Positions 1 to 10,489 of a stretch of 10,489 nt of DNA are shown piece by piece. Position numbers and translations under genes: made by a program. The stretch's first letter is position 1. Each line of letters starts with the position of its first letter. Under the pieces are notes generated by a model that saw only the letters and a program-made list of their open reading frames with translations, was not told the DNA's origin and did not search any database. Origin of the DNA: a virus (taxonomy: Duplodnaviria; Heunggongvirae; Uroviricota; Caudoviricetes). The stretch is from the IMG/VR virus record IMGVR_UViG_2703718820_000012, positions 1-10,489 of that record, one strand, 5' to 3'.

Positions 1-1
1 G

Positions 2-688
2 GACCAGGAAAAATGGAGCGGCGACGGTGCCGGACTCAAGGCCATCACCGGCGGCGATGCGGTGTCCGTGGACCCGAAATACCGGGATGCGTACTCCACG
101 CATATCCCGGCGGTAATTCTGGCCGTGAACAATAACCCGATGCGCTTCACCGACCGCAGCGGCGGCGTGTCACGCCGGCGGGTGATTATTCACTTCCCGG
201 AACAGATAGCCCCGCAGGAGCGCGACCCGCAGCTTAAGGACAAAATCACCCGCGAGCTGGCGGTCATCGTGCGTCACCTGATGCAGAAGTTCAGCGACCC
301 GATGCTCGCCCGGTCACTGCTTCAGTCCCAGCAGAACTCAGACGAGGCGCTGAACATCAAACGGGATGCCGACCCGACGTTTGATTTTATCGGCTATCTG
401 GAAACCCTGCCGCAGACCAGCGGCATGTATATGGGGAACGCCAGTATCATCCCGCGCAATTACCGTAAATACCTCTATCACGCCTATCTGGCCTACATGG
501 AGGCAAACGGCTACCGGAATGTACTCAGTCTGAAAATGTTCGGGCTGGGGCTGCCGGTGATGCTGAAGGAATACGGACTGAATTACGAGAAGCGCCATAC
601 CAAACAGGGGATACAGACCAACCTGACGCTGAAAGAGGAAAGCTACGGCGACTGGCTGCCAAAATGTGACGACCCTGCAACAGCCTGA
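2..688 (+). CDS. P4 alpha-type primase/helicase, C-terminal portion (5' end upstream of window)
   Basis: Reading frame is open from the first base of the window (…DQEKWSGDGAGLKAITGGDAVSVDPKYRD…); the GTG at 62 chosen by the ORF track is internal, not a start. ILAVNNNP / RRRVIIHF segments resemble the end of an SF3 helicase core as in P4 alpha and D5-like primases. Stop TGA at 686-688 is followed by a strong terminator and TGTTCAC iterons, the binding motif of P4 alpha. Confidence 0.75.
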   Translation, partial: DQEKWSGDGAGLKAITGGDAVSVDPKYRDAYSTHIPAVILAVNNNPMRFTDRSGGVSRRRVIIHFPEQIAPQERDPQLKDKITRELAVIVRHLMQKFSDPMLARSLLQSQQNSDEALNIKRDADPTFDFIGYLETLPQTSGMYMGNASIIPRNYRKYLYHAYLAYMEANGYRNVLSLKMFGLGLPVMLKEYGLNYEKRHTKQGIQTNLTLKEESYGDWLPKCDDPATA

Positions 689-695
689 CCCACCT

Positions 696-720
696 GACCG
701 GCATCTGCCGGTCTTTTTTT
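696..720 (+). terminator. Rho-independent terminator of the primase gene
   Basis: GACCGGC (696-702) / GCCGGTC (707-713) 7-bp GC-rich stem, ATCT loop, then a run of seven T (714-720), starting 8 nt after the stop codon. Confidence 0.7.
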
Positions 721-738
721 ATCCCGACATCCCCCGAA

Positions 739-766
739 GGTGAACAATCCACTGTTCACTCTTCAC
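739..766. promoter_or_regulatory. Isolated iteron pair (GGTGAACA-N6-TGTTCAC inverted repeat) of crr/ori type
   Basis: GGTGAACA at 739-746 and TGTTCAC at 753-759 form an inverted repeat; a degenerate copy CTTCAC follows at 761-766. Same octamer family as the clustered repeats at 3037-3337. Confidence 0.5.
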
Positions 767-1149
767 TGTATATCCCCCGTACCAATATGAATTTAGTGAC
801 AAGAAAACATAAGTTGAACAGGAAAACCCAAAGAACTTTTTATCCCCCTCCAGACATTACCTGTCGCATCCATATTGAGCAAAAAATCTCATAGATAGAG
901 TGGTATTATTAACGTTTATCGCTTATCTAAATAGTAAAAACAAAATGCGATTCTAATTTTATTCACAGGGTAAATAACTGAAATTATCTAAATAACTATA
1001 AACCCCTCATATATATAAATAAATTATACCACATAACCAAAATACGATATTCTGCTGAGATCATTAAATTTAAGCTTATTTCAATGGCTATTACTCTAAA
1101 GATTTGTTAATAACCAGTCGTCATGAAAATATACTTACAGTTATGTTTA

Positions 1150-1158
1150 TGCTATAAT
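1150..1158 (+). promoter_or_regulatory. Candidate extended -10 promoter element (TGCTATAAT) for the HAD gene
   Basis: TGnTATAAT match 28 nt upstream of the ATG at 1186; no convincing -35 at proper spacing, which is tolerated by extended -10 promoters. Confidence 0.35.
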
Positions 1159-1185
1159 CAGTGACAAATATTTTGGGGAGGAATT

Positions 1186-1872
1186 ATGAAAATTTGTTTT
1201 TTCGATATGGAGGGGACTTTACTTGAAAAGAACTCATATTTAGATAATGGAAAAGTTGCACCGAGCGCGTGGACAGTACTTGCCAAAGAAATCAGCGAAG
1301 CTTGTTTTATTGAAGAGGAAAAAACAAAAGATTTATGGCTAGCTAATAAATATATCAGCTATACACAATGGATGAAAGAAACTGTTGAAATACAAATCAA
1401 ACATGGAATGAACAAAAATCACCTACAAACGGTATTATCTCAAGCGAAGATACAAAAAGGTGCTGTGGAACTTATTCATTATTTGAAAAGTCAAGGATAC
1501 TTAACAGTATTGATATCTGGTGGGTTTAAAGAATTAGCAGACCTAACTCAAAAGAGCCTAAAAATAGATCATGCATATAGTGCTTGTGAATATTTTTTTA
1601 GGAAAGATGGTAGCATTGAGCACTTCAATCTATTACCAACAGATGAGGAAGGGAAACTGGTCTTCATGAAACACCTTGCCTCTGAATATAACGTAGAACT
1701 TGAAAATTGTATTTTTGTTGGCGATGGGAAGAATGATGTTTTTATCGCCAAAAATGTAGGTACTTCTATAGCCTTCAATGCTCAGAGAGAATTAAGAGAA
1801 GTATCTACATTTATTGTAGACCAAGAAACACCTGATTTATCAGCGATTATTGACCTTATTAGAACTATTTAA
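1186..1872 (+). CDS. HAD-superfamily hydrolase, phosphoserine-phosphatase (SerB)-like
   Basis: Strong RBS (GGGGAGGA, 4-nt spacer) before ATG 1186. HAD motifs: I FFDMEGTL (Asp nucleophile, Glu at +2 instead of the usual Asp), II VLISGGF, III Lys in FMKHL, IV GDGKNDVFIAKNVGTSIAF, the last very like SerB GDGANDLPM…AG.GIAF. Visibly AT-rich compared with the flanks. Confidence 0.8.
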   Translation: MKICFFDMEGTLLEKNSYLDNGKVAPSAWTVLAKEISEACFIEEEKTKDLWLANKYISYTQWMKETVEIQIKHGMNKNHLQTVLSQAKIQKGAVELIHYLKSQGYLTVLISGGFKELADLTQKSLKIDHAYSACEYFFRKDGSIEHFNLLPTDEEGKLVFMKHLASEYNVELENCIFVGDGKNDVFIAKNVGTSIAFNAQRELREVSTFIVDQETPDLSAIIDLIRTI

Positions 1873-2673
1873 TCGATTTTGGAAGTCAAGTTTATCTTTA
1901 ACTATTTCCAGTTGTTCCTCTAACTGTTTTATCTTTGATTCAGACTGTAATTTGTACTGATTAAATTCATTTAAGTCAAATTTCTCTGAGAAATAGTAAT
2001 CTCTCCCAAAAGAAATTAGCGAGAGGAATAACCCAACAACAGCGATCATCGTTCCTATTTTAGTTATCGATATAATTGATAATTTTTCAGTTAGCTCTTT
2101 GCTTATCTGCTCTTTTAGAACTACTGGTTCTAAAAAAGTTTTAGGAAAATTACTTATATCTGAAACACGGTAAGATCTATATTCATTATATTGTTCTATA
2201 ACATCATAAGAACTAGGCACAGCAGAAGCCGGTTGATAATTTGGATTTTTTTCTATTTCATGGAATACAACTCTAAAGAAAGATTTATCTTGCTCACTAT
2301 CAGTAACTGGAAGATATTCCTCTACAGCTGAGAAATTAATTAACAGTGTTGATATCGGACCGTTATATCCAGAATCGATAATACCAGTATTGAGTGCAAG
2401 AAACCCCTTTTGCGATAATCTATTTTTTAAAAATACATATGCAATAAAACCCTCTGGCACATGAAGTATTTCTTCTGATATTACAAAAGCCGAATCTTGC
2501 GGTTTAAGTAAAGTTCTTCCGAGAGATCTTACATGATTTTTTTCATCTTTAAAAAGAATTTCCCTAATAGAAAGATCCACACTTGATTTATTAGAATAAT
2601 CTTTTGTGATTTTTTTGTTATATCTATCACAAACAAACCCATATTCAATTGCTTTTTGAGCACTAATCTGCAT
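1840..2673 (-). CDS. dUTPase/dCTP-deaminase-superfamily domain protein with predicted transmembrane helix and C-terminal coiled coil
   Basis: 277-aa ORF with AGGTGA RBS upstream of ATG (2671-2673). Central segment RLSQKGFLALNTGIIDSGYNGPISTLLINFS matches Dut motif III (GLIDSDYQGQLMISVWN) and the Dcd core (RIDPGWSG…LEFYN). Hydrophobic stretch LSIISITKIGTMIAVVGLFLSLISFG suggests one TM helix; the tail (KLQSESKIKQLEEQLEIVKDKLDFQNRL) is heptad-like. 3' end overlaps the HAD gene by 33 bp. Confidence 0.75.
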   Translation of the reverse strand: MQISAQKAIEYGFVCDRYNKKITKDYSNKSSVDLSIREILFKDEKNHVRSLGRTLLKPQDSAFVISEEILHVPEGFIAYVFLKNRLSQKGFLALNTGIIDSGYNGPISTLLINFSAVEEYLPVTDSEQDKSFFRVVFHEIEKNPNYQPASAVPSSYDVIEQYNEYRSYRVSDISNFPKTFLEPVVLKEQISKELTEKLSIISITKIGTMIAVVGLFLSLISFGRDYYFSEKFDLNEFNQYKLQSESKIKQLEEQLEIVKDKLDFQNRLNSSNKVNNR

Positions 2674-2893
2674 ACTTCACCTAACTTAGCTTATTCTATC
2701 GAACAATAATTGAATCACATAGTTATAATGTAACTAGACGAATATATCCAATGTTTTTGAATATATTATTGACGAAGCAAGTCAACTGATCAATACTGTG
2801 TATAAAAAAACAACATCTTCACCACATATAAAAAAAACATAAAATCATGGTACTACCTCAAAGTCCTGACTCCTGCTGAATTGCTTAATCATA

Positions 2894-2995
2894 AGAAGCG
2901 CCATACAAAACAGGGAATAAAGAGCAACCTGACGCAAAAAGAGGAAAGCTACGGCCACTGGCTGCCAAAATGTTACGCTCCTGCAACAACCCTAC
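2894..2995 (+). pseudogene. Relic of primase 3' end (direct-repeat copy 2); not an independent gene
   Basis: Encodes KKRHTKQGIKSNLTQKEESYGHWLPKCYAPATT, which parallels EKRHTKQGIQTNLTLKEESYGDWLPKCDDPATA at the end of the 2-688 gene. The original stop is lost, so the track ORF 2881-3093 reads through into terminator and iteron DNA. Confidence 0.65.
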
Positions 2996-2998
2996 CTA

Positions 2999-3022
2999 GA
3001 CCGTCCTCTGCCGGTCTTTTTT
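2999..3022 (+). terminator. Degenerate copy of the primase terminator
   Basis: GACCG (2999-3003) / CGGTC (3012-3016) stem, 8-nt loop, then a T run (3017-3022); positionally equivalent to 696-720. Confidence 0.4.
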
Positions 3023-3036
3023 ATCCCGGCCCCCCA

Positions 3037-3157
3037 GAAGATGAACAATCCACTGTTCACCTTTCACCGTATATTCACCTGTTATCATACTGAAATTAAA
3101 AGAGAAAAATGAAAGGTGAACAGTGTGAACAATCAAATCAAAAAAACTCTTTTCTCC
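3037..3157. repeat. crr-like replication element, 120-bp direct repeat unit 1 (TGTTCACC-type iterons)
   Basis: Contains TGTTCACC (3054-3061), TTTCACC, ATTCACC, and inverted GGTGAACA (3115-3122) / GTGTGAACA (3123-3131). Aligns nearly base-for-base with unit 2. Confidence 0.7.
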
Positions 3158-3215
3158 TTGTGTGATTTCAGTCCGGGGAATTAATCACCGGTATGAGTCA
3201 CACCGGCAGAATGCC

Positions 3216-3337
3216 GGAGGTGAAGAATCAAATGTTCACCCTTCACCCATTATTCACCACCTATCATACTGAAAGTAAAAGAGAAAACAGAAAGGTGAAC
3301 AGTGTGAACAGTTCTTTCGAAAAAAACTTTTTTCCTG
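3216..3337. repeat. crr-like replication element, 120-bp direct repeat unit 2
   Basis: TGTTCACC (3233-3240), CTTCACCC, ATTCACC, GGTGAACA (3294-3301), GTGTGAACA (3302-3310); offset 179 bp from unit 1. The ~58-bp spacer carries a hairpin CCGGCA-GAA-TGCCGG (3203-3217). Confidence 0.7.
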
Positions 3338-3620
3338 TACGATACAGCATCAATCAAAGTAAAAATGAGCTTTCATTCCACATTAACTTACAGCCATTGG
3401 TATACAATTAGGTATACGCACAAAAGCTGAATTAAATAAAATAATTAAAAATCAAAGAAATAAAATACTTATTCAAACTCCGCCAGCCCAATCATGATTG
3501 GACGGTGTAAGGACAACACCAACAAAAACAGGAAGTTAGCAGTCTCAGCAGGACACCGACCAGACGGTGAGGAGACAAAAAAGGATACGCAAAGGAGCCG
3601 CGGCTCTCGAGTGACACAAA

Positions 3621-3647
3621 AGCCCGCTTATGCGGGCTTTTTGTTTT
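3621..3647. terminator. Intrinsic terminator hairpin (A-tract / stem-loop / T-tract), orphan
   Basis: AGCCCGC (3621-3627) / GCGGGCT (3632-3638) stem with TTAT loop, preceded by AAAA and followed by TTTTTGTTTTT. No annotated CDS ends here. Confidence 0.55.
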
Positions 3648-3718
3648 TCCCTTAAGTTCCTAGCCGCTTATCTATAACTATGGAAAAATGTTAACCCTGA
3701 CTGTATGTTAACAAAGGG

Positions 3719-4933
3719 ATGTATATGTCGGTTTTTCATAACTGGCTGCTTGATATCGCAAGCGGGAATTACTTTATCTACATCAAACGCCTTTCTGCAA
3801 ACGACACAGGCGCAACAGGTGGCCATCAGGTCGGACTTTATATCCCCTCAAATATCGTTGAAAAGCTTTTTCCATCAATCAATCATACTCGCGAACTGAA
3901 CCCTTCAGTCTTCCTTACTGCGCATGTATCATCCCATGATTGCCCTGATACCCAAGCACGCGCAATTTATTACAACAACCGTTATTTTGGTAAGACCCGA
4001 AACGAAAAAAGAATTACGCGCTGGGGGAGAGGAAGTCCATTACAGAACCCTGAAAATACAGGAGCCCTCACAATTCTTGCTTTCAGGTTAAACGAACAGA
4101 ACACTGACTGTTCCGAGGTAGATATATGGGTCTGCGTCAATCCCGATGAAGAGGATATCATCGAGTCTGCTATTGGCGAAATCATACCTGGAACCCTAAT
4201 TTCCGGCCCTGCCGGACAAATTTTGGGCGGATTGTCTCTTCAGCAAACTCCAGTAAATCATAAATATGTTATTCCTGAAGACTGGAAGAAGCGTTTTCCT
4301 TCTGGAAACGAAATTATTCAATATGCTGCTGGCCATTATGCTAAAAACTCCAAGGATCCAGATGAGCAACTGATTGACCGTCGGCGTGTCGAGTATGATA
4401 TTTTTCTACTCGTCGAGGAATTACATGTTCTTGATATTATTAAGAAAGGATTCGATTCTGTAGATGAGTTTATTGCATTAGCCAACTCTGTCAGTAATCG
4501 ACGTAAATCAAGGGCAGGCAAATCACTTGAACTTCACCTAGAGAAGCTTTTTATCGAGCACGGACTACGGCATTTCTCCACTCAGGCAGTTACTGAAGGT
4601 AATAAAAAACCAGATTTCCTGTTTCCTTCAGCAGAGGCATATCATAACGTTGAATTTCCTGTAGAAAACTTACGTATGCTGGCAGTAAAGACCACCTGCA
4701 AAGATCGCTGGCGTCAGATACTGAATGAAGCAGATAAAATCCATCAGGTACATTTATTTACACTGCAAGAAGGTGTTTCTTCAGCACAATACCGAGAAAT
4801 GAAAGATGCGGGTGTCAGACTCGTTGTACCATCAACTTTACATAAAAAATACCCAGAAGCAGTTAGAGAAGAATTAATAACGCTCGGAGCATTCATTACT
4901 GAGCTGATAGAGCTTTACGCTGAACTATCATAG
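3719..4933 (+). CDS. ecoRIIR: Type IIE restriction endonuclease, EcoRII family (CCWGG)
   Basis: 404-aa ORF whose N-terminus (M-Y-MSVFHNWLLDIASGNYFIYIKRLSANDTGATGGHQVGLYIP…) I recognise as EcoRII; the length matches my recollection of R.EcoRII. It is convergent with a Dcm-like methyltransferase, as in the EcoRII system. Start ambiguity: ATG 3719 has a poorly spaced SD, ATG 3725 has AAGGGA at 5 nt. Confidence 0.85.
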   Translation: MYMSVFHNWLLDIASGNYFIYIKRLSANDTGATGGHQVGLYIPSNIVEKLFPSINHTRELNPSVFLTAHVSSHDCPDTQARAIYYNNRYFGKTRNEKRITRWGRGSPLQNPENTGALTILAFRLNEQNTDCSEVDIWVCVNPDEEDIIESAIGEIIPGTLISGPAGQILGGLSLQQTPVNHKYVIPEDWKKRFPSGNEIIQYAAGHYAKNSKDPDEQLIDRRRVEYDIFLLVEELHVLDIIKKGFDSVDEFIALANSVSNRRKSRAGKSLELHLEKLFIEHGLRHFSTQAVTEGNKKPDFLFPSAEAYHNVEFPVENLRMLAVKTTCKDRWRQILNEADKIHQVHLFTLQEGVSSAQYREMKDAGVRLVVPSTLHKKYPEAVREELITLGAFITELIELYAELS

Positions 4934-4938
4934 GCTGA

Positions 4939-4961
4939 CTCCCGGCTTAAAAGGCCGGGAG
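4939..4961. terminator. Inter-convergent hairpin, possible bidirectional terminator between R and M genes
   Basis: CTCCCGGC (4939-4946) / GCCGGGAG (4954-4961) perfect 8-bp stem with 7-nt loop, inside the 34-bp gap between the two stop codons. No clear T-tract. Confidence 0.4.
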
Positions 4962-4967
4962 ATGTTC

Positions 4968-6401
4968 TCAAGGCTGCCCAGTCTTACCAGCATCAGCAGA
5001 AACAGCTTTGAGGATATAGGGTTCCAGAAGTCTGGCAACAGCTTCAAATACTGGCACCACAACTGAGTTACCGAACTGCCGATATGACTGAGTATCTGAA
5101 ACCGGAATACGGAATGGTTTCCCTCCAGGTTTTTCAAATCCCATAAGGCGTGCACACTCTCGGGGAGTCAGCCTGCGTGGTCGACGAGCCTGATTACTCT
5201 CATTCATAAAGTCAGCCTCTCCCGTTGCCATATCCCAACCACGATCAATAAGAATTTCTGATCCGTCTTTGTGATATCTGGCAGAAAGTGTGCGTGCAAT
5301 GCTTTCCTTATTCTCAGGATTGACCAACCCAAAGCCAAAACCATTCCCCTTGGCTGCATGCTTTTTGGCGTAGTTATAAAGGTACTCCCATAGTTTTGGC
5401 GTAAGTATATATTTACTGTCGACTACAGGCTCCAGCAATTCACCAAATGATGGGCGGTGTTCCGGATAAAAACGACTGATATCACGCAAGGTAAACCCCT
5501 TGTGAATATTCAGATCTCGTCTAAATCCGACCAGAACAATGCGTTCACGATGCTGAGGCAAAAAATGCTTCCCATCGATAATCTTTGGATCGTTTTTTCC
5601 CATTTCTGCAGCATCGGCAACTTCGTAGCCCAGCTCGTCAAGGGTCTCCATAATCACTTTGAAAGTTTTACCCTTATCATGGCTCTTCAGATTTTTGACA
5701 TTTTCCAGCACAAAAATTGCCGGTTTTTTTGCTCGTATAATACGTGCCACGTCAAAAAAAAGTGTTCCTTGTGCTTCACATTCAAAACCATGCGCACGAC
5801 CAAGTGAGTTTTTCTTACTAACACCAGCAAGGCTAAATGGCTGGCACGGGAACCCCGCAAGAAGCACATCATGATCCGGCACATGCTCATCAATATATGC
5901 ATAAGCATCCGTTTCCAATACATCGGTTTTATCACTCAGCGTGACTTCCCGAATATCGAGATTGAATTTATGCACCTGTTCATCGTTAAACCAGTTGGCT
6001 TTGTATGTACGCACAGCATCTTTATTCCATTCACTGGTAAAAACACACTGGCCTCCAATGGCCTCAAAACCTTTCCGTATCCCTCCAATTCCAGCAAATA
6101 AGTCAATGAAGCGGAAAGCATATTCCGGATGGTTTGCAGGTGGTTCTGGTAGCATCTTACGCAGAAGAGACTCTTCTACTGAAGTCAACGATTTTGGTAA
6201 ACACTTGCCATTAATCCAGCGGTTAATGGTTTCACGGCTCCACTCATTTTTTCCGACTTTTCTCAGTAATTCAGCCACATACTTCTGATCATAGATTTCC
6301 AGCACTTTCTCGATAAGCTTTTTATCATTTTCCTGTCGCAGCTTTTCTTCCGCCTCGGCTTCCTTCAGCAGATGCTGTGCCAACACTTCAAATTCAGACA
6401 T
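4968..6401 (-). CDS. ecoRIIM: DNA (cytosine-5)-methyltransferase, M.EcoRII/Dcm family
   Basis: C5-MTase motifs: [32 protein letters not shown]-terminal [10 protein letters not shown]; strongly collinear with E. coli Dcm as I recall it. Start placed at the Met 15 codon (ATG at 6399-6401, GGAGG RBS with 4-nt spacer), giving 477 aa; the track's 491-aa start at 6443 has no RBS. Confidence 0.85.
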
Positions 6402-6762
6402 AATTCCTCCAAGGGGTCTAATGGGTGAAACTTTATCACTCATTCAACCCAGAAGGAAATGTTTTATCTGGATATTTAAACAGTGACTACAACGTAATCT
6501 AGCACTGGTGATGCTTTGTTAGGCATAGAGAATCATTCTATATACGACTAATGACAGAAAAACAGCAGACAAGTAGTTTGTTCATAAATTAACGCATACT
6601 ATGTGTCTACGGTTTTCGAGACCGGTCCAATCATCAAACGAAACATAAAATTAGCTCACATTATGAGGAAAAGTATCTTTTTTGTACTATGTAAATTCAA
6701 AGGCTTAGCCTCATTTCTCCGATGGTTTTCTCAACACTACTGGTTGTGAGCCCTTGCAATGA

Positions 6763-7581
<819 letters not shown>

Positions 7582-7603
7582 GTCTTTAAGTGATAAGCAT
7601 AAA

Positions 7604-7642
7604 CCGCAGCACGATCTTCTTCCATACGACGTGCTACGGTTT
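7604..7642. terminator. Possible bidirectional terminator hairpin between convergent GIY-YIG and invertase genes
   Basis: CCGCAGCACG (7604-7613) / CGTGCTACGG (7630-7639), one mismatch, 16-nt loop, AAA upstream and TTT downstream. The long loop makes this weak. Confidence 0.3.
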
Positions 7643-8196
7643 CATTTATCTCCGACCGGAAACTTCTTATACAGTGTCGATATACCAACATCATAGATGA
7701 TCGCCACCTTCTGGCGAGGAACGCCTGATGCAATTAATCGCCCGGCCTGCGCCCATTGTTCTGGTGTAAGTTTGGGACGACGTCCACCAATTCGTCCCTG
7801 TGCGCGAGCAGCTTCCAGTCCAGCTTTTGTTCGTTCAACAATCAGTTCTCGTTCCATTTCAGCCAGGGCACCCATCACATGAAAGAAAAAACGCCCCATC
7901 GGTGTGCTGGTATCAATAGCATCCGTCAGACTGCGAAAATTAACGCCACGTTCGCGCAACTCCTCAACCAGAATGACCAGATGCCGCATACTACGCCCCA
8001 GCCGATCCAGCTTCCAGACAACCAGAGTGTCACCTGCCGATAATGTCCTGAGCAGTTTTTTCAGTCCCGGCCTTTCGGACTTTGTACCGCTTATCTTGTC
8101 TTCAAAAATCAGCTCGCATCCTGCACAGTTCAGCGCATTACGTTGTAGATCTGTGTTCTGGTCATTTGTTGATACGCGTACATAGCCAATAAGCAT
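7642..8196 (-). CDS. Serine-recombinase DNA invertase, Pin/Gin/Cin/Hin family
   Basis: From the internal Met: MLIGYVRVSTNDQNTDLQRNAL…GDTLVVWKLDRLGRSM…MGRFFFHVMGALAEMERELIVERT…GRIGGRRPKLT…, the catalytic Ser region and C-terminal HTH typical of Gin/Pin. Start set at ATG 8194-8196 (185 aa); the 12-codon upstream extension in the track is not supported. Confidence 0.85.
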   Translation of the reverse strand: MLIGYVRVSTNDQNTDLQRNALNCAGCELIFEDKISGTKSERPGLKKLLRTLSAGDTLVVWKLDRLGRSMRHLVILVEELRERGVNFRSLTDAIDTSTPMGRFFFHVMGALAEMERELIVERTKAGLEAARAQGRIGGRRPKLTPEQWAQAGRLIASGVPRQKVAIIYDVGISTLYKKFPVGDK

Positions 8197-8250
8197 GGTA
8201 GATCCCCCTGACAAAAGCAGGAATGATGCCATCTGCTCGTTATTTCTGCA

Positions 8251-8276
8251 TTTTCATAAACGTTGGTTTGGGAGAA
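8251..8276. repeat. Left inversion crossover site (hix/gix/pix-like 26-bp site, TT core at 8263-8264)
   Basis: TTTTCATAAACG-TT-GGTTTGGGAGAA; inner half-site identical to the right site; AAACN-NN-GGTTT architecture. Confidence 0.7.
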
Positions 8277-8630
8277 GCGGCAAAACGGAATGTAGGTAAC
8301 GGGCAAAACCAAATTCCGGATATGGCGGCGTTTGCCAGTTCACTTTCATCAACGGGTTTTCAAAAACTCCCTTCAGGTCTGATTATTCAGTGGGGTATTG
8401 TCAGTGGAGCATCAAACTATACGGTGACTTACCCGGTAACATTCCCAAATCGTTCACTTGCGCTGTTGGCTGTGCCACATACAACGTCGGTGGCTGGTAT
8501 ATCTGCAATGGGCATAGCGAACTGTTCTGATATCAGCAAATCACAGTTCTATATAATTGTTGGCGGTATATCTCAGGGAGAAATTGTCAAATATGAAAGG
8601 TCCTGTTTTTGGGTAGCAATCGGTGTATAG
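8265..8630 (+). CDS. Silent alternative tail-fibre C-terminal (receptor-binding) cassette
   Basis: Begins [20 protein letters not shown]…, paralleling [20 protein letters not shown] in the expressed fibre. It would be fused in frame to the constant part after inversion; the ATG at 8223 is fortuitous. Confidence 0.6.
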   Translation, partial: GLGEAAKRNVGNGQNQIPDMAAFASSLSSTGFQKLPSGLIIQWGIVSGASNYTVTYPVTFPNRSLALLAVPHTTSVAGISAMGIANCSDISKSQFYIIVGGISQGEIVKYERSCFWVAIGV

Positions 8631-8638
8631 GTATATCT

Positions 8639-9034
8639 ATGATTTATTTCTCAAAATCGACTAATGGTTTTTTCTTTGATGGTATAAACAGCGACATGCC
8701 TGCTGACATTGTTGAGATAAGTACAGACTTATACAATGAATTAATTGCCGGACAGCAGGAAGGGGGGAAATTAATCACGTCAGATGAAAATGGTTTACCG
8801 GTACTGAAATCTCCGGCGATTGATTATGTCGCACGTGCTGAAAATCAGCGAATGCAGTTACTTGCTCATGCCGATAATGTCACAGCTGACTGGCGGGTGG
8901 AATTAATGCTTGGTGATATCAGCAGTACAGATAAAGAAAAACTATCTGCCTGGATGGACTACAAAAAAGAAGTAAAAGCCGTCGACACTTCGACGGCTCC
9001 TGAGATTAGCTGGCCTGAGTTACCGGAGGTGTAG
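8639..9034 (+). CDS. Tail fibre assembly protein (alternative copy, Tfa/U' type)
   Basis: MIYFSKSTNGFFFDG…[17 protein letters not shown]; the C-terminal motif is typical of Tfa/gpU chaperones. ATG at 8639 preferred over the TTG at 8609. Confidence 0.7.
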   Translation: MIYFSKSTNGFFFDGINSDMPADIVEISTDLYNELIAGQQEGGKLITSDENGLPVLKSPAIDYVARAENQRMQLLAHADNVTADWRVELMLGDISSTDKEKLSAWMDYKKEVKAVDTSTAPEISWPELPEV

Positions 9035-9425
9035 GCCATTCAATATCTGGCGCACCGGAAGTATCGACCAGTTCCAGTGCGTCCAGGTAATCCAGCCACA
9101 AATTATATTGTGCCAGTTCCTCACCTTTCAGCCGGCCAATAGCCGCTTTACCAGGCCATTGTTTACTGTTCATATAATCGTTGGCCTGTTCAATAAGTAT
9201 ATTTTTCATTCCCTCCGCTTCAGCTATTTCCTGTTCATGTGTCTTCGCTGGATATTCAGTAAGTACAGGGTAGTTATCCGGGCTATTGATAATAATTTTC
9301 CCCGTACTCTGACCATTCATAAGTTCATAATAAAGAGCATCTTCAATATCGAAAGCATCATCGGGAATATCGCTGTTGTTTTCAGAGAAAAATCCCTGAA
9401 CAGATGGGGACCATTTCATTTTCAT
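9006..9425 (-). CDS. Tail fibre assembly protein (Tfa/U type, currently in expressed orientation)
   Basis: [16 protein letters not shown]…[16 protein letters not shown]. Start ATG overlaps the stop of the upstream fibre gene (ATGA coupling at 9422-9425); 3' end overlaps the other tfa by 29 bp. Confidence 0.75.
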
Positions 9426-10489
9426 AATTTCCCAATTCCTAAAATATGGACATCATCAGCCTTACGGGCATTCCAGGTGACAATTACATCGGTAGAGTGA
9501 CGATTAACTGAGATTGCGTATGCTTCGTTAGTCGAGCCAGAAACTTTTGTGGCAAACACAGCAAACAGGACACCAAATGACTGGGGCCATTTATAGCCTG
9601 ACAGCTGATAATTACCATTATCCAGTGTTACAGCTTTGACTGCTGCACTTGATGGAATCGTCAGCCACTGGAGTATCAACCCTCCTGGCAAAAGTTGTTT
9701 TCCATAAAAATCCCTCACACCACTAAATGAAACCATATCCGGTATCTGATTTTCCCCTGTTCCCACGTCCCGTTTTGCCGCTTCTCCCAAACCAAGGTTT
9801 TCGAGAGCCGTTTGCACAGTGCCATCCGATTTGATATCGCCAAACGGATTCTTGCGGCTTAACAGCAGCGCACGAAGTGCGGTAAGCATCTGGTCATGCC
9901 GCCCTTTCTCCAGGCTGGCACCGGAGGCCTCCACCACGCTACAAAGTTCTTCCTGCAACATGTCAAAGTAGTCATCATCCAGATCGGTGGCAGGTGTGCC
10001 GGTCTGGGGGTTACCACGGGTATCCGGTTTGTCGGTGTTACTGCCCTGACCGTTCTCTCTGTGACGATGCCCGTTATAGGCAAGCCGCATCGCTGACATG
10101 GTGGTGCCGCCGGAGTCGCACAGGTCTTTCACCTGTCCGGTCACTTCCAGGTCCATTTCAAAACGTGCTTCAGGTGCATTGCGAAACGTGATCGTTTTAC
10201 CTGCACCGTCCACCACGATCCCCTCCCGGGTCAGCGTCACGGACTGCCCCTGATCGTCATAGACAGCCACCTCGCCCGTCTGCAGCCCTTTCAGGCGGTA
10301 GCGACGGTCCGACACCGTAACAACCACCGCATGAGAACGGTCGCCATCCGGAAACAACACCACCGCTTCCGCACCGCTGTTTGCCCTTGCGGTAAAACCG
10401 TAGGGTTCAAGATGTTCAACCCCGGCTTTGGGTTCACCGGCAATCAGGGACACATCCACGGTCTGTAGTGGCACACTAAATTTGGCCAC
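9422..10489 (-). CDS. Phage tail fibre protein, 3' portion (constant region plus currently fused variable tip); 5' end beyond window
   Basis: Open frame from the window edge to the stop at 9422-9424. The constant/variable junction at [13 protein letters not shown] coincides with the right crossover site. The upstream part (…FPDG…DSGGTT…HRH…) loosely resembles baseplate-spike (gpV-like) proteins, but this is tentative. Confidence 0.65.
9782..9807. repeat. Right inversion crossover site (hix/gix-like, AA core at 9794-9795)
   Basis: TTCTCCCAAACC-AA-GGTTTTCGAGAG; about 21 of 26 positions match hixL (TTCTTGAAAACCAAGGTTTTTGATAA) as I recall it. Confidence 0.7.

Follow-up and report, generated by a model that had tools for sequence, protein, structure and literature searches.

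A membrane-anchored Dcd-like protein without the catalytic glutamate and a HAD-IB phosphatase form a conserved, apparently undescribed gene pair carried by P4-like satellites

DcdV and the dGTPases are nucleotide-depleting defence enzymes. Defence genes are also carried by P4-like satellites, where a HAD-superfamily hydrolase and a membrane protein form the anti-T7 system ‘Hydrolase + 3TM’ (Rousset et al. 2022, plasmid pFR97), and a 2026 preprint places 7% of P4-like satellite defence systems between the primase gene and the attachment (att) site. Here we describe a gene pair in a 10,489-nucleotide stretch of DNA (IMG/VR record IMGVR_UViG_2703718820_000012, positions 1 to 10,489; hereafter the window), which is E. 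coli chromosome. One gene (1840-2673, minus strand) encodes a 277-residue protein that we name DCD-TM, a membrane-anchored Dcd-like protein without the catalytic Glu, and the other (1186-1872, plus strand) encodes a 228-residue HAD-IB phosphatase of the phosphoserine-phosphatase-like type, as assigned with Pfam and NCBIfam. The pair is a real, conserved two-gene module, apparently undescribed in the literature we searched. A first-pass annotation of the window, made from the sequence alone, had described DCD-TM as a dUTPase/Dcd-fold domain fused to a transmembrane helix and a coiled coil; that observation is confirmed with one residue corrected and its interpretation is partly supported, whilst the obligate HAD gene, membership of the Dcd branch, a deaminase-paired sister clade and a tie to C5-cytosine methylation go beyond it.

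The Pfam scores of DCD-TM lie just below threshold (DCD, 25 versus 27 bits; dUTPase, 21.5 versus 22 bits), hence the claim of a Dcd/dUTPase fold required independent support. In phmmer searches against PDB sequences the best matches were staphylococcal phage dUTPases (E = 2.5e-6), and a profile built from 39 family members matches the dUTPase of equine infectious anaemia virus (EIAV; E = 2.6e-8). These independent sequence and profile matches show that the dUTPase-type jelly-roll fold is genuine and of the Dcd branch. The jelly-roll spans residues 1-140 (2254-2673, minus strand) and carries a motif I Asp (D33), a variant motif II (K83-N84) and R134.

Reference sequences of E. coli Dcd and Dut were confirmed as exact database entries before alignment. 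Using hhalign, the family profile pairs D100, Y103 and N113 with D128, W131 and N141 of E. coli Dcd, and motif III (G97-I-I-D100-x-x-Y103) aligns, as G97-I-I-D100-S-G-Y103, with GLIDSDY of Dut. The motif III read beforehand from GIIDSGYNG (residues 97-105) and LLINFS (residues 110-115), including its first Asp, is borne out by these alignments. The deaminase triad of Dcd is replaced in the same hhalign comparison (S111 by N84, R115 by Q88 and E138 by L110), and not one of the ~300 family members has Glu at the catalytic position. The loss of this Glu had been recognised, but the residue named in its place, Ile112, was incorrect, as Leu110 is the aligned residue. DCD-TM scores 29.2 bits against a cut-off of 92.8 for TIGR02274 (NCBIfam dCTP_deam) and, judging from its residues, would have no capacity for deamination.

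The canonical motif II and the Arg/Gln of motif IV were not found in DCD-TM. The Arg-Ser of Dut motif II is replaced by K83-N84, the family form being a K/R-(N/T)-(S/T/G) variant of the phosphate-binding motif, and invariant R134 stands at the position of the Dut motif IV Gln in the HMMER alignment, the register of which differs from that of hhalign; residue equivalences outside motifs II and III are of low confidence. There is no Gly-rich motif V after residue 140, where helices, the membrane helix and the coiled coil are found instead. This absence was correctly reported beforehand but is not the distinctive trait it was taken for, since motif V is missing throughout the Dcd branch and its lack in DCD-TM is uninformative. 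A Dcd-type lid tyrosine appears to be retained as Y165, which pairs with Y179 of Dcd in a joint alignment that is weak and of low confidence.

The pocket residues assigned to sugar and phosphate (D33, K83, N84, D100, Y/F103 and R134) are invariant. In dUTPases the motif III Asp is the general base, and the pocket of DCD-TM is predicted to be a Dcd-type nucleotide site which keeps the deoxyribose-selecting aromatic residue, the dUTPase general-base Asp and a motif II variant. Such conservation fits the earlier suggestion of a nucleotide-binding or hydrolysing protein and argues against the other suggestion made with it, an inactive scaffold. The view that DCD-TM is not a housekeeping dUTPase, and not a canonical Dcd either, also holds, given family cut-offs that are widely missed, the lost deaminase triad, the membrane anchor and carriage as mobile-element cargo.

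Beyond the jelly-roll, residues 141-200 (2074-2253, minus strand) form a variable loop followed by two helices (158-174 and 183-200 in the AlphaFold2 (AF2) model), which bear the invariant Y165 and the motif P177-x-x-F180-L181 and are possibly a Dcd-type lid plus a stalk towards the membrane. A hydropathy scan predicts a single transmembrane helix at residues 201-223 (ISITKIGTMIAVVGLFLSLISFG; 2005-2073, minus strand), residues ~198-223 being the sole 19-residue window in the protein with a mean Kyte-Doolittle value of at least 1.5. All 39 aligned members have the hydrophobic helix at the same position, as do 299 of 301 proteins in the wider set, and in the AF2 monomer it belongs to a free helix that is unpacked against the domain; the proposal of a hydrophobic helix of ~25 residues agrees with both results. 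The heptad-patterned tail (residues 234-271; 1861-1974, minus strand) is indeed helical in the AF2 model (pLDDT 65-83), but clean heptads are limited to residues ~248-262 (I248, L251, L255, V258 and L262), about two heptads, hence the coiled coil is shorter than first described. Tail length varies from 0 to ~160 residues among relatives, and one member stops directly after the helix. DCD-TM has no signal peptide and follows the positive-inside rule only weakly (2.7 versus 2.0 K+R), from which we infer, tentatively, that the N-domain is cytoplasmic, in which case the tail would be periplasmic. A PHROG holin profile gives a faint, non-significant match to residues 203-254 (E = 0.12).

Both genes have good ribosome-binding sites. 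The DCD-TM open reading frame (ORF) starts at ATG with AGGTGA just 5' of it, and a consensus scan found a promoter-like site upstream (TTGATC-17-AATAAT; 2765-2793, minus strand), which is weak, such sites being no commoner here than in shuffled sequence. The HAD gene is preceded by an extended -10-like element (TGcTATAAT; 1151-1159, plus strand; a consensus match only) and then by GGAGG 7 nt before the ATG. Its product has HAD motifs I-IV and a C1 cap, scores above the cut-off of the HAD-IB subfamily and resembles YjjG weakly. It falls well short of the SerB phosphoserine phosphatase equivalogs (TIGR00338, 85.8 versus 144 bits; NF008350, 50.6 versus 413 bits) and has a family-specific conserved cap segment (residues 15-65).

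The HAD gene is an obligate, conserved partner of DCD-TM. The two genes are convergent, and their 3' ends overlap by 33 nt (1840-1872, from the ORF coordinates). This convergent layout is present in every locus of the HAD-partnered family (clade 1), with an overlap of 18-39 nt or a gap of 0-39 nt, and a HAD-IB gene adjoins every examined clade-1 homologue with enough flanking sequence, save for two explained exceptions. An AAA_13 ATPase gene lies between the two tails in one Pseudoalteromonas locus (L019 4333-6453), and a Mutator-family insertion sequence transposase takes the place of the HAD gene in Alteromonas confluentis (L026 10862-12130). The tail-to-tail pair recurs in an E. coli island of another kind (int-AlpA-Rep), in a Vibrio P2-like prophage, in Idiomarina, Thiodiazotropha, Shewanella, Photobacterium, Psychromonas, Pseudoalteromonas, Pseudidiomarina and Rahnella, in an Alteromonadaceae metagenome bin and in four IMG/VR viral contigs.

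A total of ~19 residues of DCD-TM are invariant in the family (D33, S66, L82, K83, N84, G90, A93, N95, T96, G97, I98, D100, G105, T109, N113, S115, R134, Y165 and F180), and these are retained down to 32% identity. A search of 5.8 billion proteins yielded 114 clusters, which come from Enterobacterales, Vibrio, Photobacterium, Idiomarina and other groups and share one architecture. When 1.84 billion representatives were searched exhaustively with a profile, the search returned 101 proteins at E<=1e-30 and 760 at E<=1e-10; nearly all of the best 150 matches listed are 250-290 residues long and match through the membrane helix, and the full-length architecture is kept across hundreds of 50%-identity clusters. 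Among genomes the family is rare and patchy, with nine loci in 100,044 species representatives.

A tblastn match on a Sinorhizobium megaplasmid led to a sister clade (clade 2) of 98 clusters in alpha- and beta-proteobacteria, which likewise has the jelly-roll fold, a membrane helix and a coiled coil, with Ala at the Glu position. The partner in this clade is a zinc deaminase of 163-182 residues instead of a HAD phosphatase, encoded head-to-head (divergently) with the Dcd-like gene. This deaminase is closest to the dCMP deaminases of T4, human and bacteria, together with the catalytic core of the anti-phage dCTP deaminase (NF041025), which it matches with an E-value of about 1e-11.

Outside enterics, members of both clades are located in or next to C5-methyltransferase/Vsr restriction-modification operons. 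A C5-methyltransferase gene was found within 5 kb in nine of 11 non-enteric clade-1 loci and in four of five clade-2 loci, with Vsr frequently present. The neighbouring methyltransferases fall in at least five unrelated lineages, including an LlaJI-type clade (66-79% mutual identity) accompanied by AAA_5 and LlaJI restriction genes, a Dcm-like enzyme with an MvaI/BcnI-family nuclease, NgoMIV, and the arrangements methyltransferase-HNH-Vsr and methyltransferase-Vsr-EcoRII-C. Often only 0-3 nt separate a gene of the pair from its restriction-modification neighbour, the spacing from methyltransferase to HAD gene being 2-3 nt, and in two genera the deaminase gene heads a deaminase-methyltransferase-Vsr-EcoRII-C operon. 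A general rule of a partner gene on the same strand as the methyltransferase gene was rejected, as the Dcd-like gene has that place in three loci (L013, L019 and L028). Further related copies adjoin BrxR, AIPR, AAA_13, RES and PD-T4-3 genes, and one lies between cI and int of the Vibrio P2-like prophage. The pair-bearing island of Photobacterium also has a DndB-like gene (L022 6505-8118), located between Vsr and an MvaI/BcnI-family nuclease.

In the window the pair is carried by a 2.1-kb cassette (779-2883) with ~31% guanine-plus-cytosine (GC) content, compared to 56-60% in the preceding primase gene (windows 251-750 and 1-500). This is the 3' part of a P4-like satellite primase/helicase (alpha) gene (62-688, plus strand; Pfam Pox_D5, E = 4e-17). 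The cassette is bounded by two direct repeats, 85-92% identical, which cover the last 110 nt of the primase gene, its terminator and ~60 further bases. The left repeat (578-778, plus strand; repeat families D1, D5, D7 and D3) contains the primase 3' end, a terminator-like hairpin (696-719, with a terminator-like site called at 696-713) and ~60 nt beyond, and the right repeat (2884-3079, plus strand) contains a remnant primase 3' end and terminator (2998-3022). In most E. coli genomes both flanks are joined without the cassette, nearly all other E. coli satellites are without it, and the right repeat copy is the true primase gene end in 239 genomes, with EcoRII directly after.

The cassette was detected in five of 5,426 complete E. 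coli genomes, two of which have a frameshifted Dcd-like gene. In E. coli BEN2908 it is 100% identical over 1186-2673 and follows a full 2.3-kb primase gene in an int-psu-delta-sid-...-alpha satellite at ssrA, and in E. coli E1 another P4-like element, located at tRNA-Sec, has an 87%-identical cassette in the corresponding place. The Dcd-like gene of E1 (L002 10719-11560; also FXCREC043) is split into two overlapping ORFs, of which RefSeq annotates only 142 residues, and the HAD gene is intact. Citrobacter and Enterobacter satellites show the same arrangement, marked by an 88%-identical HAD. The cassette is hence found at the primase-att site in three independent P4-like lineages, and is a mobile two-gene module carried as cargo of this minor (primase-att) defence hotspot. 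In Paraburkholderia (L037 1-431) and Novosphingobium (L040 1-983), a Prim-Pol/D5_N primase gene lies a few kb upstream of the deaminase-partnered version, a placement which echoes the position of the cassette 3' of the P4 primase in E. coli.

The interpretation we favour, if tentatively, is that the pair may be a two-step sink for deoxycytidine-type, possibly C5-modified, nucleotides serving phage defence. A trimer-type Dcd-fold protein, held in the inner membrane by its one helix, would bind a deoxycytidine-type triphosphate and hydrolyse it to the monophosphate and pyrophosphate, the most plausible substrate being C5-substituted, for example 5-hydroxymethyl- or 5-methyl-dCTP. The HAD-IB phosphatase would dephosphorylate the monophosphate to the nucleoside, so that re-phosphorylation would not be possible, and in the sister clade the dCMP deaminase would take this second step. 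The net outcome would be an irreversible sink for that nucleotide. Its purpose would be to counter phages through the nucleotide pool, complementing those restriction enzymes that C5-modified cytosine blocks: a host bearing 5-methylcytosine (m5C) would be barred from using m5C-dependent nucleases against phages with C5-substituted cytosine, and fully C5-substituted phages would evade any restriction enzyme with C5-methylation as its cognate protection.

The only substrate class plausibly common to phosphatase and deaminase partners is a dCMP-like mononucleotide, which makes a sequential scheme the simplest. Hydrolysis of a triphosphate has precedent on this fold in the archaeal Dcd-like dUTPases. 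Since a constitutive sink for normal dCTP would be harmful, and the pair travels with C5-methylating systems, C5-substituted substrates are favoured. Furthermore, location in satellite and prophage hotspots and the BrxR, AIPR, AAA_13, RES and PD-T4-3 neighbours favour a role in defence.

Several points weigh against such a sink. The canonical Ser of motif II is Asn in this clade and no replacement residue was identified for the lid contacts, hence the domain could be one that binds nucleotides but does not hydrolyse them. A sink leaves the tail and the membrane anchor, conserved throughout the family, unexplained, and a constitutive dCTP sink would be toxic unless specific or regulated. The closest relatives of the HAD partner are phosphoserine phosphatases, not nucleotidases, and its motif I is D-x-E, presumably as in the phosphotransferase ThrH, to which similarity searches gave only weak matches. 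Genes for two steps of one pathway would also not usually lie on opposite strands, as these always do. The methyltransferase link was counted on ~16 loci without a matched background, with six clade-1 loci sharing one methyltransferase lineage. Finally, no model of PADLOC-DB v2 matches DCD-TM, and tblastn detected no DCD-TM homologue in 50,697 deposited phage genomes. A further proposal, which we think unlikely, casts the pair as a hitherto unrecognised nucleotide-level arm of cytosine-methylating restriction systems, the membrane trimer, derived from dCTP deaminase, recognising the C5-modified dCTPs of phages with hypermodified DNA and either destroying them together with the dCMP-level sink (HAD phosphatase or dCMP deaminase) or switching a membrane effector through the ligand-responsive C-terminal arm. 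If true, this arm would cover exactly those phages which escape restriction enzymes paired with a C5-methyltransferase.

The membrane helix is best accounted for if DCD-TM is instead a nucleotide-gated membrane effector acting by abortive infection, an explanation to which we give a rather low probability. Here a non-catalytic Dcd-like trimer would be the sensor; a phage-specific or phage-perturbed deoxycytidine nucleotide may rearrange its three helices to permeabilise or depolarise the membrane, and the HAD (or the sister-clade deaminase) may destroy the ligand in uninfected cells, preventing self-activation. When an enzyme of the dUTPase fold binds substrate, its C-terminal arm becomes ordered above the active site. 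Here the arm that closes over the nucleotide leads into the stalk, membrane helix and coiled coil, which makes it plausible that ligand and membrane are coupled. After the pocket, the helix is the most constant feature of the family, and a soluble enzyme needs none. Loss of the deaminase residues, the changed motif II Ser, the faint holin match and genes that are always on opposite strands, as if independently expressed, would all suit an effector, as would the logic of a HAD with a membrane protein in ‘Hydrolase + 3TM’, for which its authors suggested abortive infection. However, one helix per subunit, of poorly conserved sequence, is a weak candidate for a pore, the tail may be missing altogether or reach 160 residues, and the invariant catalytic-base Asp and phosphate-binding positions exceed the needs of binding alone.

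The operon linkage, in turn, is best explained by pool hygiene for cytosine-methylating cells rather than defence, the pair being a damage-control accessory of C5-methyltransferases in the manner of Vsr, itself a precedent for a maintenance gene that travels with them. The pair may remove 5-methyl-dCTP or 5-methyl-dCMP derived from DNA turnover, or cytosine analogues such as 5-aza- or 5-fluoro-dCTP, which trap C5-methyltransferases covalently on DNA. E. coli strains carrying C5-methyltransferases show hypersensitivity to 5-azacytidine, and nearly all E. coli have Dcm. Enteric copies of the pair may serve the core Dcm. Consistent with this are the pairs inside methyltransferase-Vsr-restriction enzyme operons, their 2-3 nt spacing from methyltransferase to HAD gene, the deaminase in first place in the EcoRII-C operons, the weak likeness of the HAD to YjjG and the reported activity of human DCTPP1 on 5-methyl-dCTP (PMC4491611). 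We nevertheless consider this explanation doubtful: the flux of 5-methyl-dCMP from turnover is tiny and the benefit small, the enteric pair stands alone as satellite or small-island cargo in defence hotspots, which is odd for a housekeeping helper, the pair is far rarer than C5-methyltransferases, and the membrane anchor is again unexplained. An ordinary or decaying gene, either a redundant dUTPase/Dcd paralogue or an inactive remnant beside an unrelated HAD, would suit the subthreshold Pfam scores, the two frameshifted copies and the great rarity of the cassette, but is very improbable and largely excluded by the conservation data, namely the invariant residues, the architecture kept across clusters, the conserved partner gene, the ribosome-binding sites and the absence of the catalytic Glu from all members, which marks it as a stable family trait and not decay.

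The remainder of the window holds a complete EcoRII-type restriction enzyme gene (EcoRII-N and EcoRII-C domains; 3719-4933, plus strand) and, convergent with it, a Dcm-type C5-methyltransferase gene (4968-6443, minus strand). We rejected this EcoRII-Dcm system, 1 kb away from the DCD-TM gene, as evidence of a link with methylation, since 239 E. coli genomes have the island at the primase end without the cassette and the proximity is therefore incidental here. As a neighbour it is still striking, given that the sister clade is found in methyltransferase-Vsr-EcoRII-C operons. Further along (6808-7581, plus strand) is a gene whose product matches over its full length the known single-gene defence protein PD-T4-3 (GIY-YIG, LEM-3-like; PADLOC E = 1e-139, 255 of 256 profile positions).

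At the end of the window a Pin/Gin-type serine invertase gene lies beside oppositely oriented tail-fibre and tail-fibre-assembly genes (7642-8232, minus strand; 8223-9425; 9422-10489, minus strand). The ORF at 8223-8630 (plus strand) and the tail-fibre ORF at 9422-10489 (minus strand) have in common the peptide GLGEAAKR(N/D)VG(N/T)G(Q/E)NQIPDM, and this stretch looks like the invertible host-range segment of a cryptic Mu/e14-like prophage. Close to the right end of the cassette are two 115-nt direct repeats (3039-3153 and 3218-3332; 80% identical), each containing a perfect inverted repeat of 15-16 nt (CACTGTTCACCTTTCA; arms at 3051-3066/3110-3125 and 3290-3304), with a related copy at 731-778. 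No ORF or Rfam family accounts for these repeats, which may be part of the satellite att end; Rfam and tRNA scans of the window gave no matches.

Database and literature searches set the pair apart from described families. PADLOC, PHROGs and NCBIfam hold no informative family for DCD-TM, and in PADLOC-DB v2 the HAD matches PDC-S34 over 36 residues only (E = 2.8e-4), so that neither protein rises above noise. We found no description of the pair, nor any test of phage protection by it, in the literature on dUTPase/Dcd/HAD defence, bacterial 5-methyl-dCTP pyrophosphatases and dCMP deaminase/Vsr/methyltransferase neighbourhoods, and it is not mentioned in two preprints on modularity. The dUTPase-domain system predicted by DefensePredictor has other partners (MazG-C kinase, aGPT-Pplase). 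A predicted dUTPase-fold trimer joined to a membrane helix through its ligand-responsive C-terminal arm is, moreover, an architecture that our searches of the PDB and the literature did not find. If the pair is protective, defences acting on the nucleotide pool would gain an enzyme fold new to them (dUTPase/Dcd) as well as a new two-step logic, and the pair could explain how bacteria with C5-methylating restriction handle phages with modified cytosines. If it serves pool hygiene, it would be a bacterial counterpart of the human DCTPP1/dCMP-deaminase barrier that keeps methylcytosine from being re-used, and would accompany methyltransferases in the manner of Vsr.

Compared to Dcd, DCD-DUT and the archaeal Dcd-like dUTPases (e.g. 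P45), DCD-TM has N84, Q88 and L110 in place of S111, R115 and E138, and it has an added stalk, membrane helix and coiled coil and is encoded by a mobile-element gene with a fixed partner. It resembles the trimeric Dut enzymes, including the staphylococcal phage dUTPases, in its motif III Asp and Tyr and its motif I-like Asp. ‘Hydrolase + 3TM’ is likewise a HAD-superfamily hydrolase with a membrane protein carried as cargo of E. coli P4-like satellites; however, its HAD is of the HAD_2 type and 288 residues long, the partner of that HAD crosses the membrane with three helices and lacks a Dcd-like domain, and the system occupies the psu-int hotspot whereas the cassette of the window is in the primase-att hotspot. 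We rejected identity of the two systems, as BLASTP against the Table S2 proteins gave E-values of only 0.024 (over 26 residues) and 0.27. The nucleotide-depleting defence enzymes (the anti-phage dCTP deaminase NF041025, DcdV and the dGTPases) would share with the pair the deoxynucleotide pool as target, deoxycytidine especially, but the defence deaminases combine a zinc-dependent cytidine-deaminase fold with a kinase-like domain, whereas DCD-TM has the unrelated dUTPase fold and, on its residues, cannot deaminate. Human DCTPP1 with dCMP deaminase, in the sanitation of 5-methyl-dCTP (PMC4491611), would follow the same logic of a pyrophosphatase and then removal of the monophosphate; DCTPP1 is an all-alpha, MazG-like, soluble and eukaryotic protein, and the likeness would be one of functional analogy only. 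Lastly, HAD phosphatases occur in validated defence systems, in DS-9 (a metallophosphatase with a HAD) and in the CARF-HAD effectors of type III CRISPR, although these belong to other HAD subfamilies and have other partners. For the HAD phosphatases of defence islands, whose role is unknown according to published work, the pair described here offers a hypothesis of substrate class.

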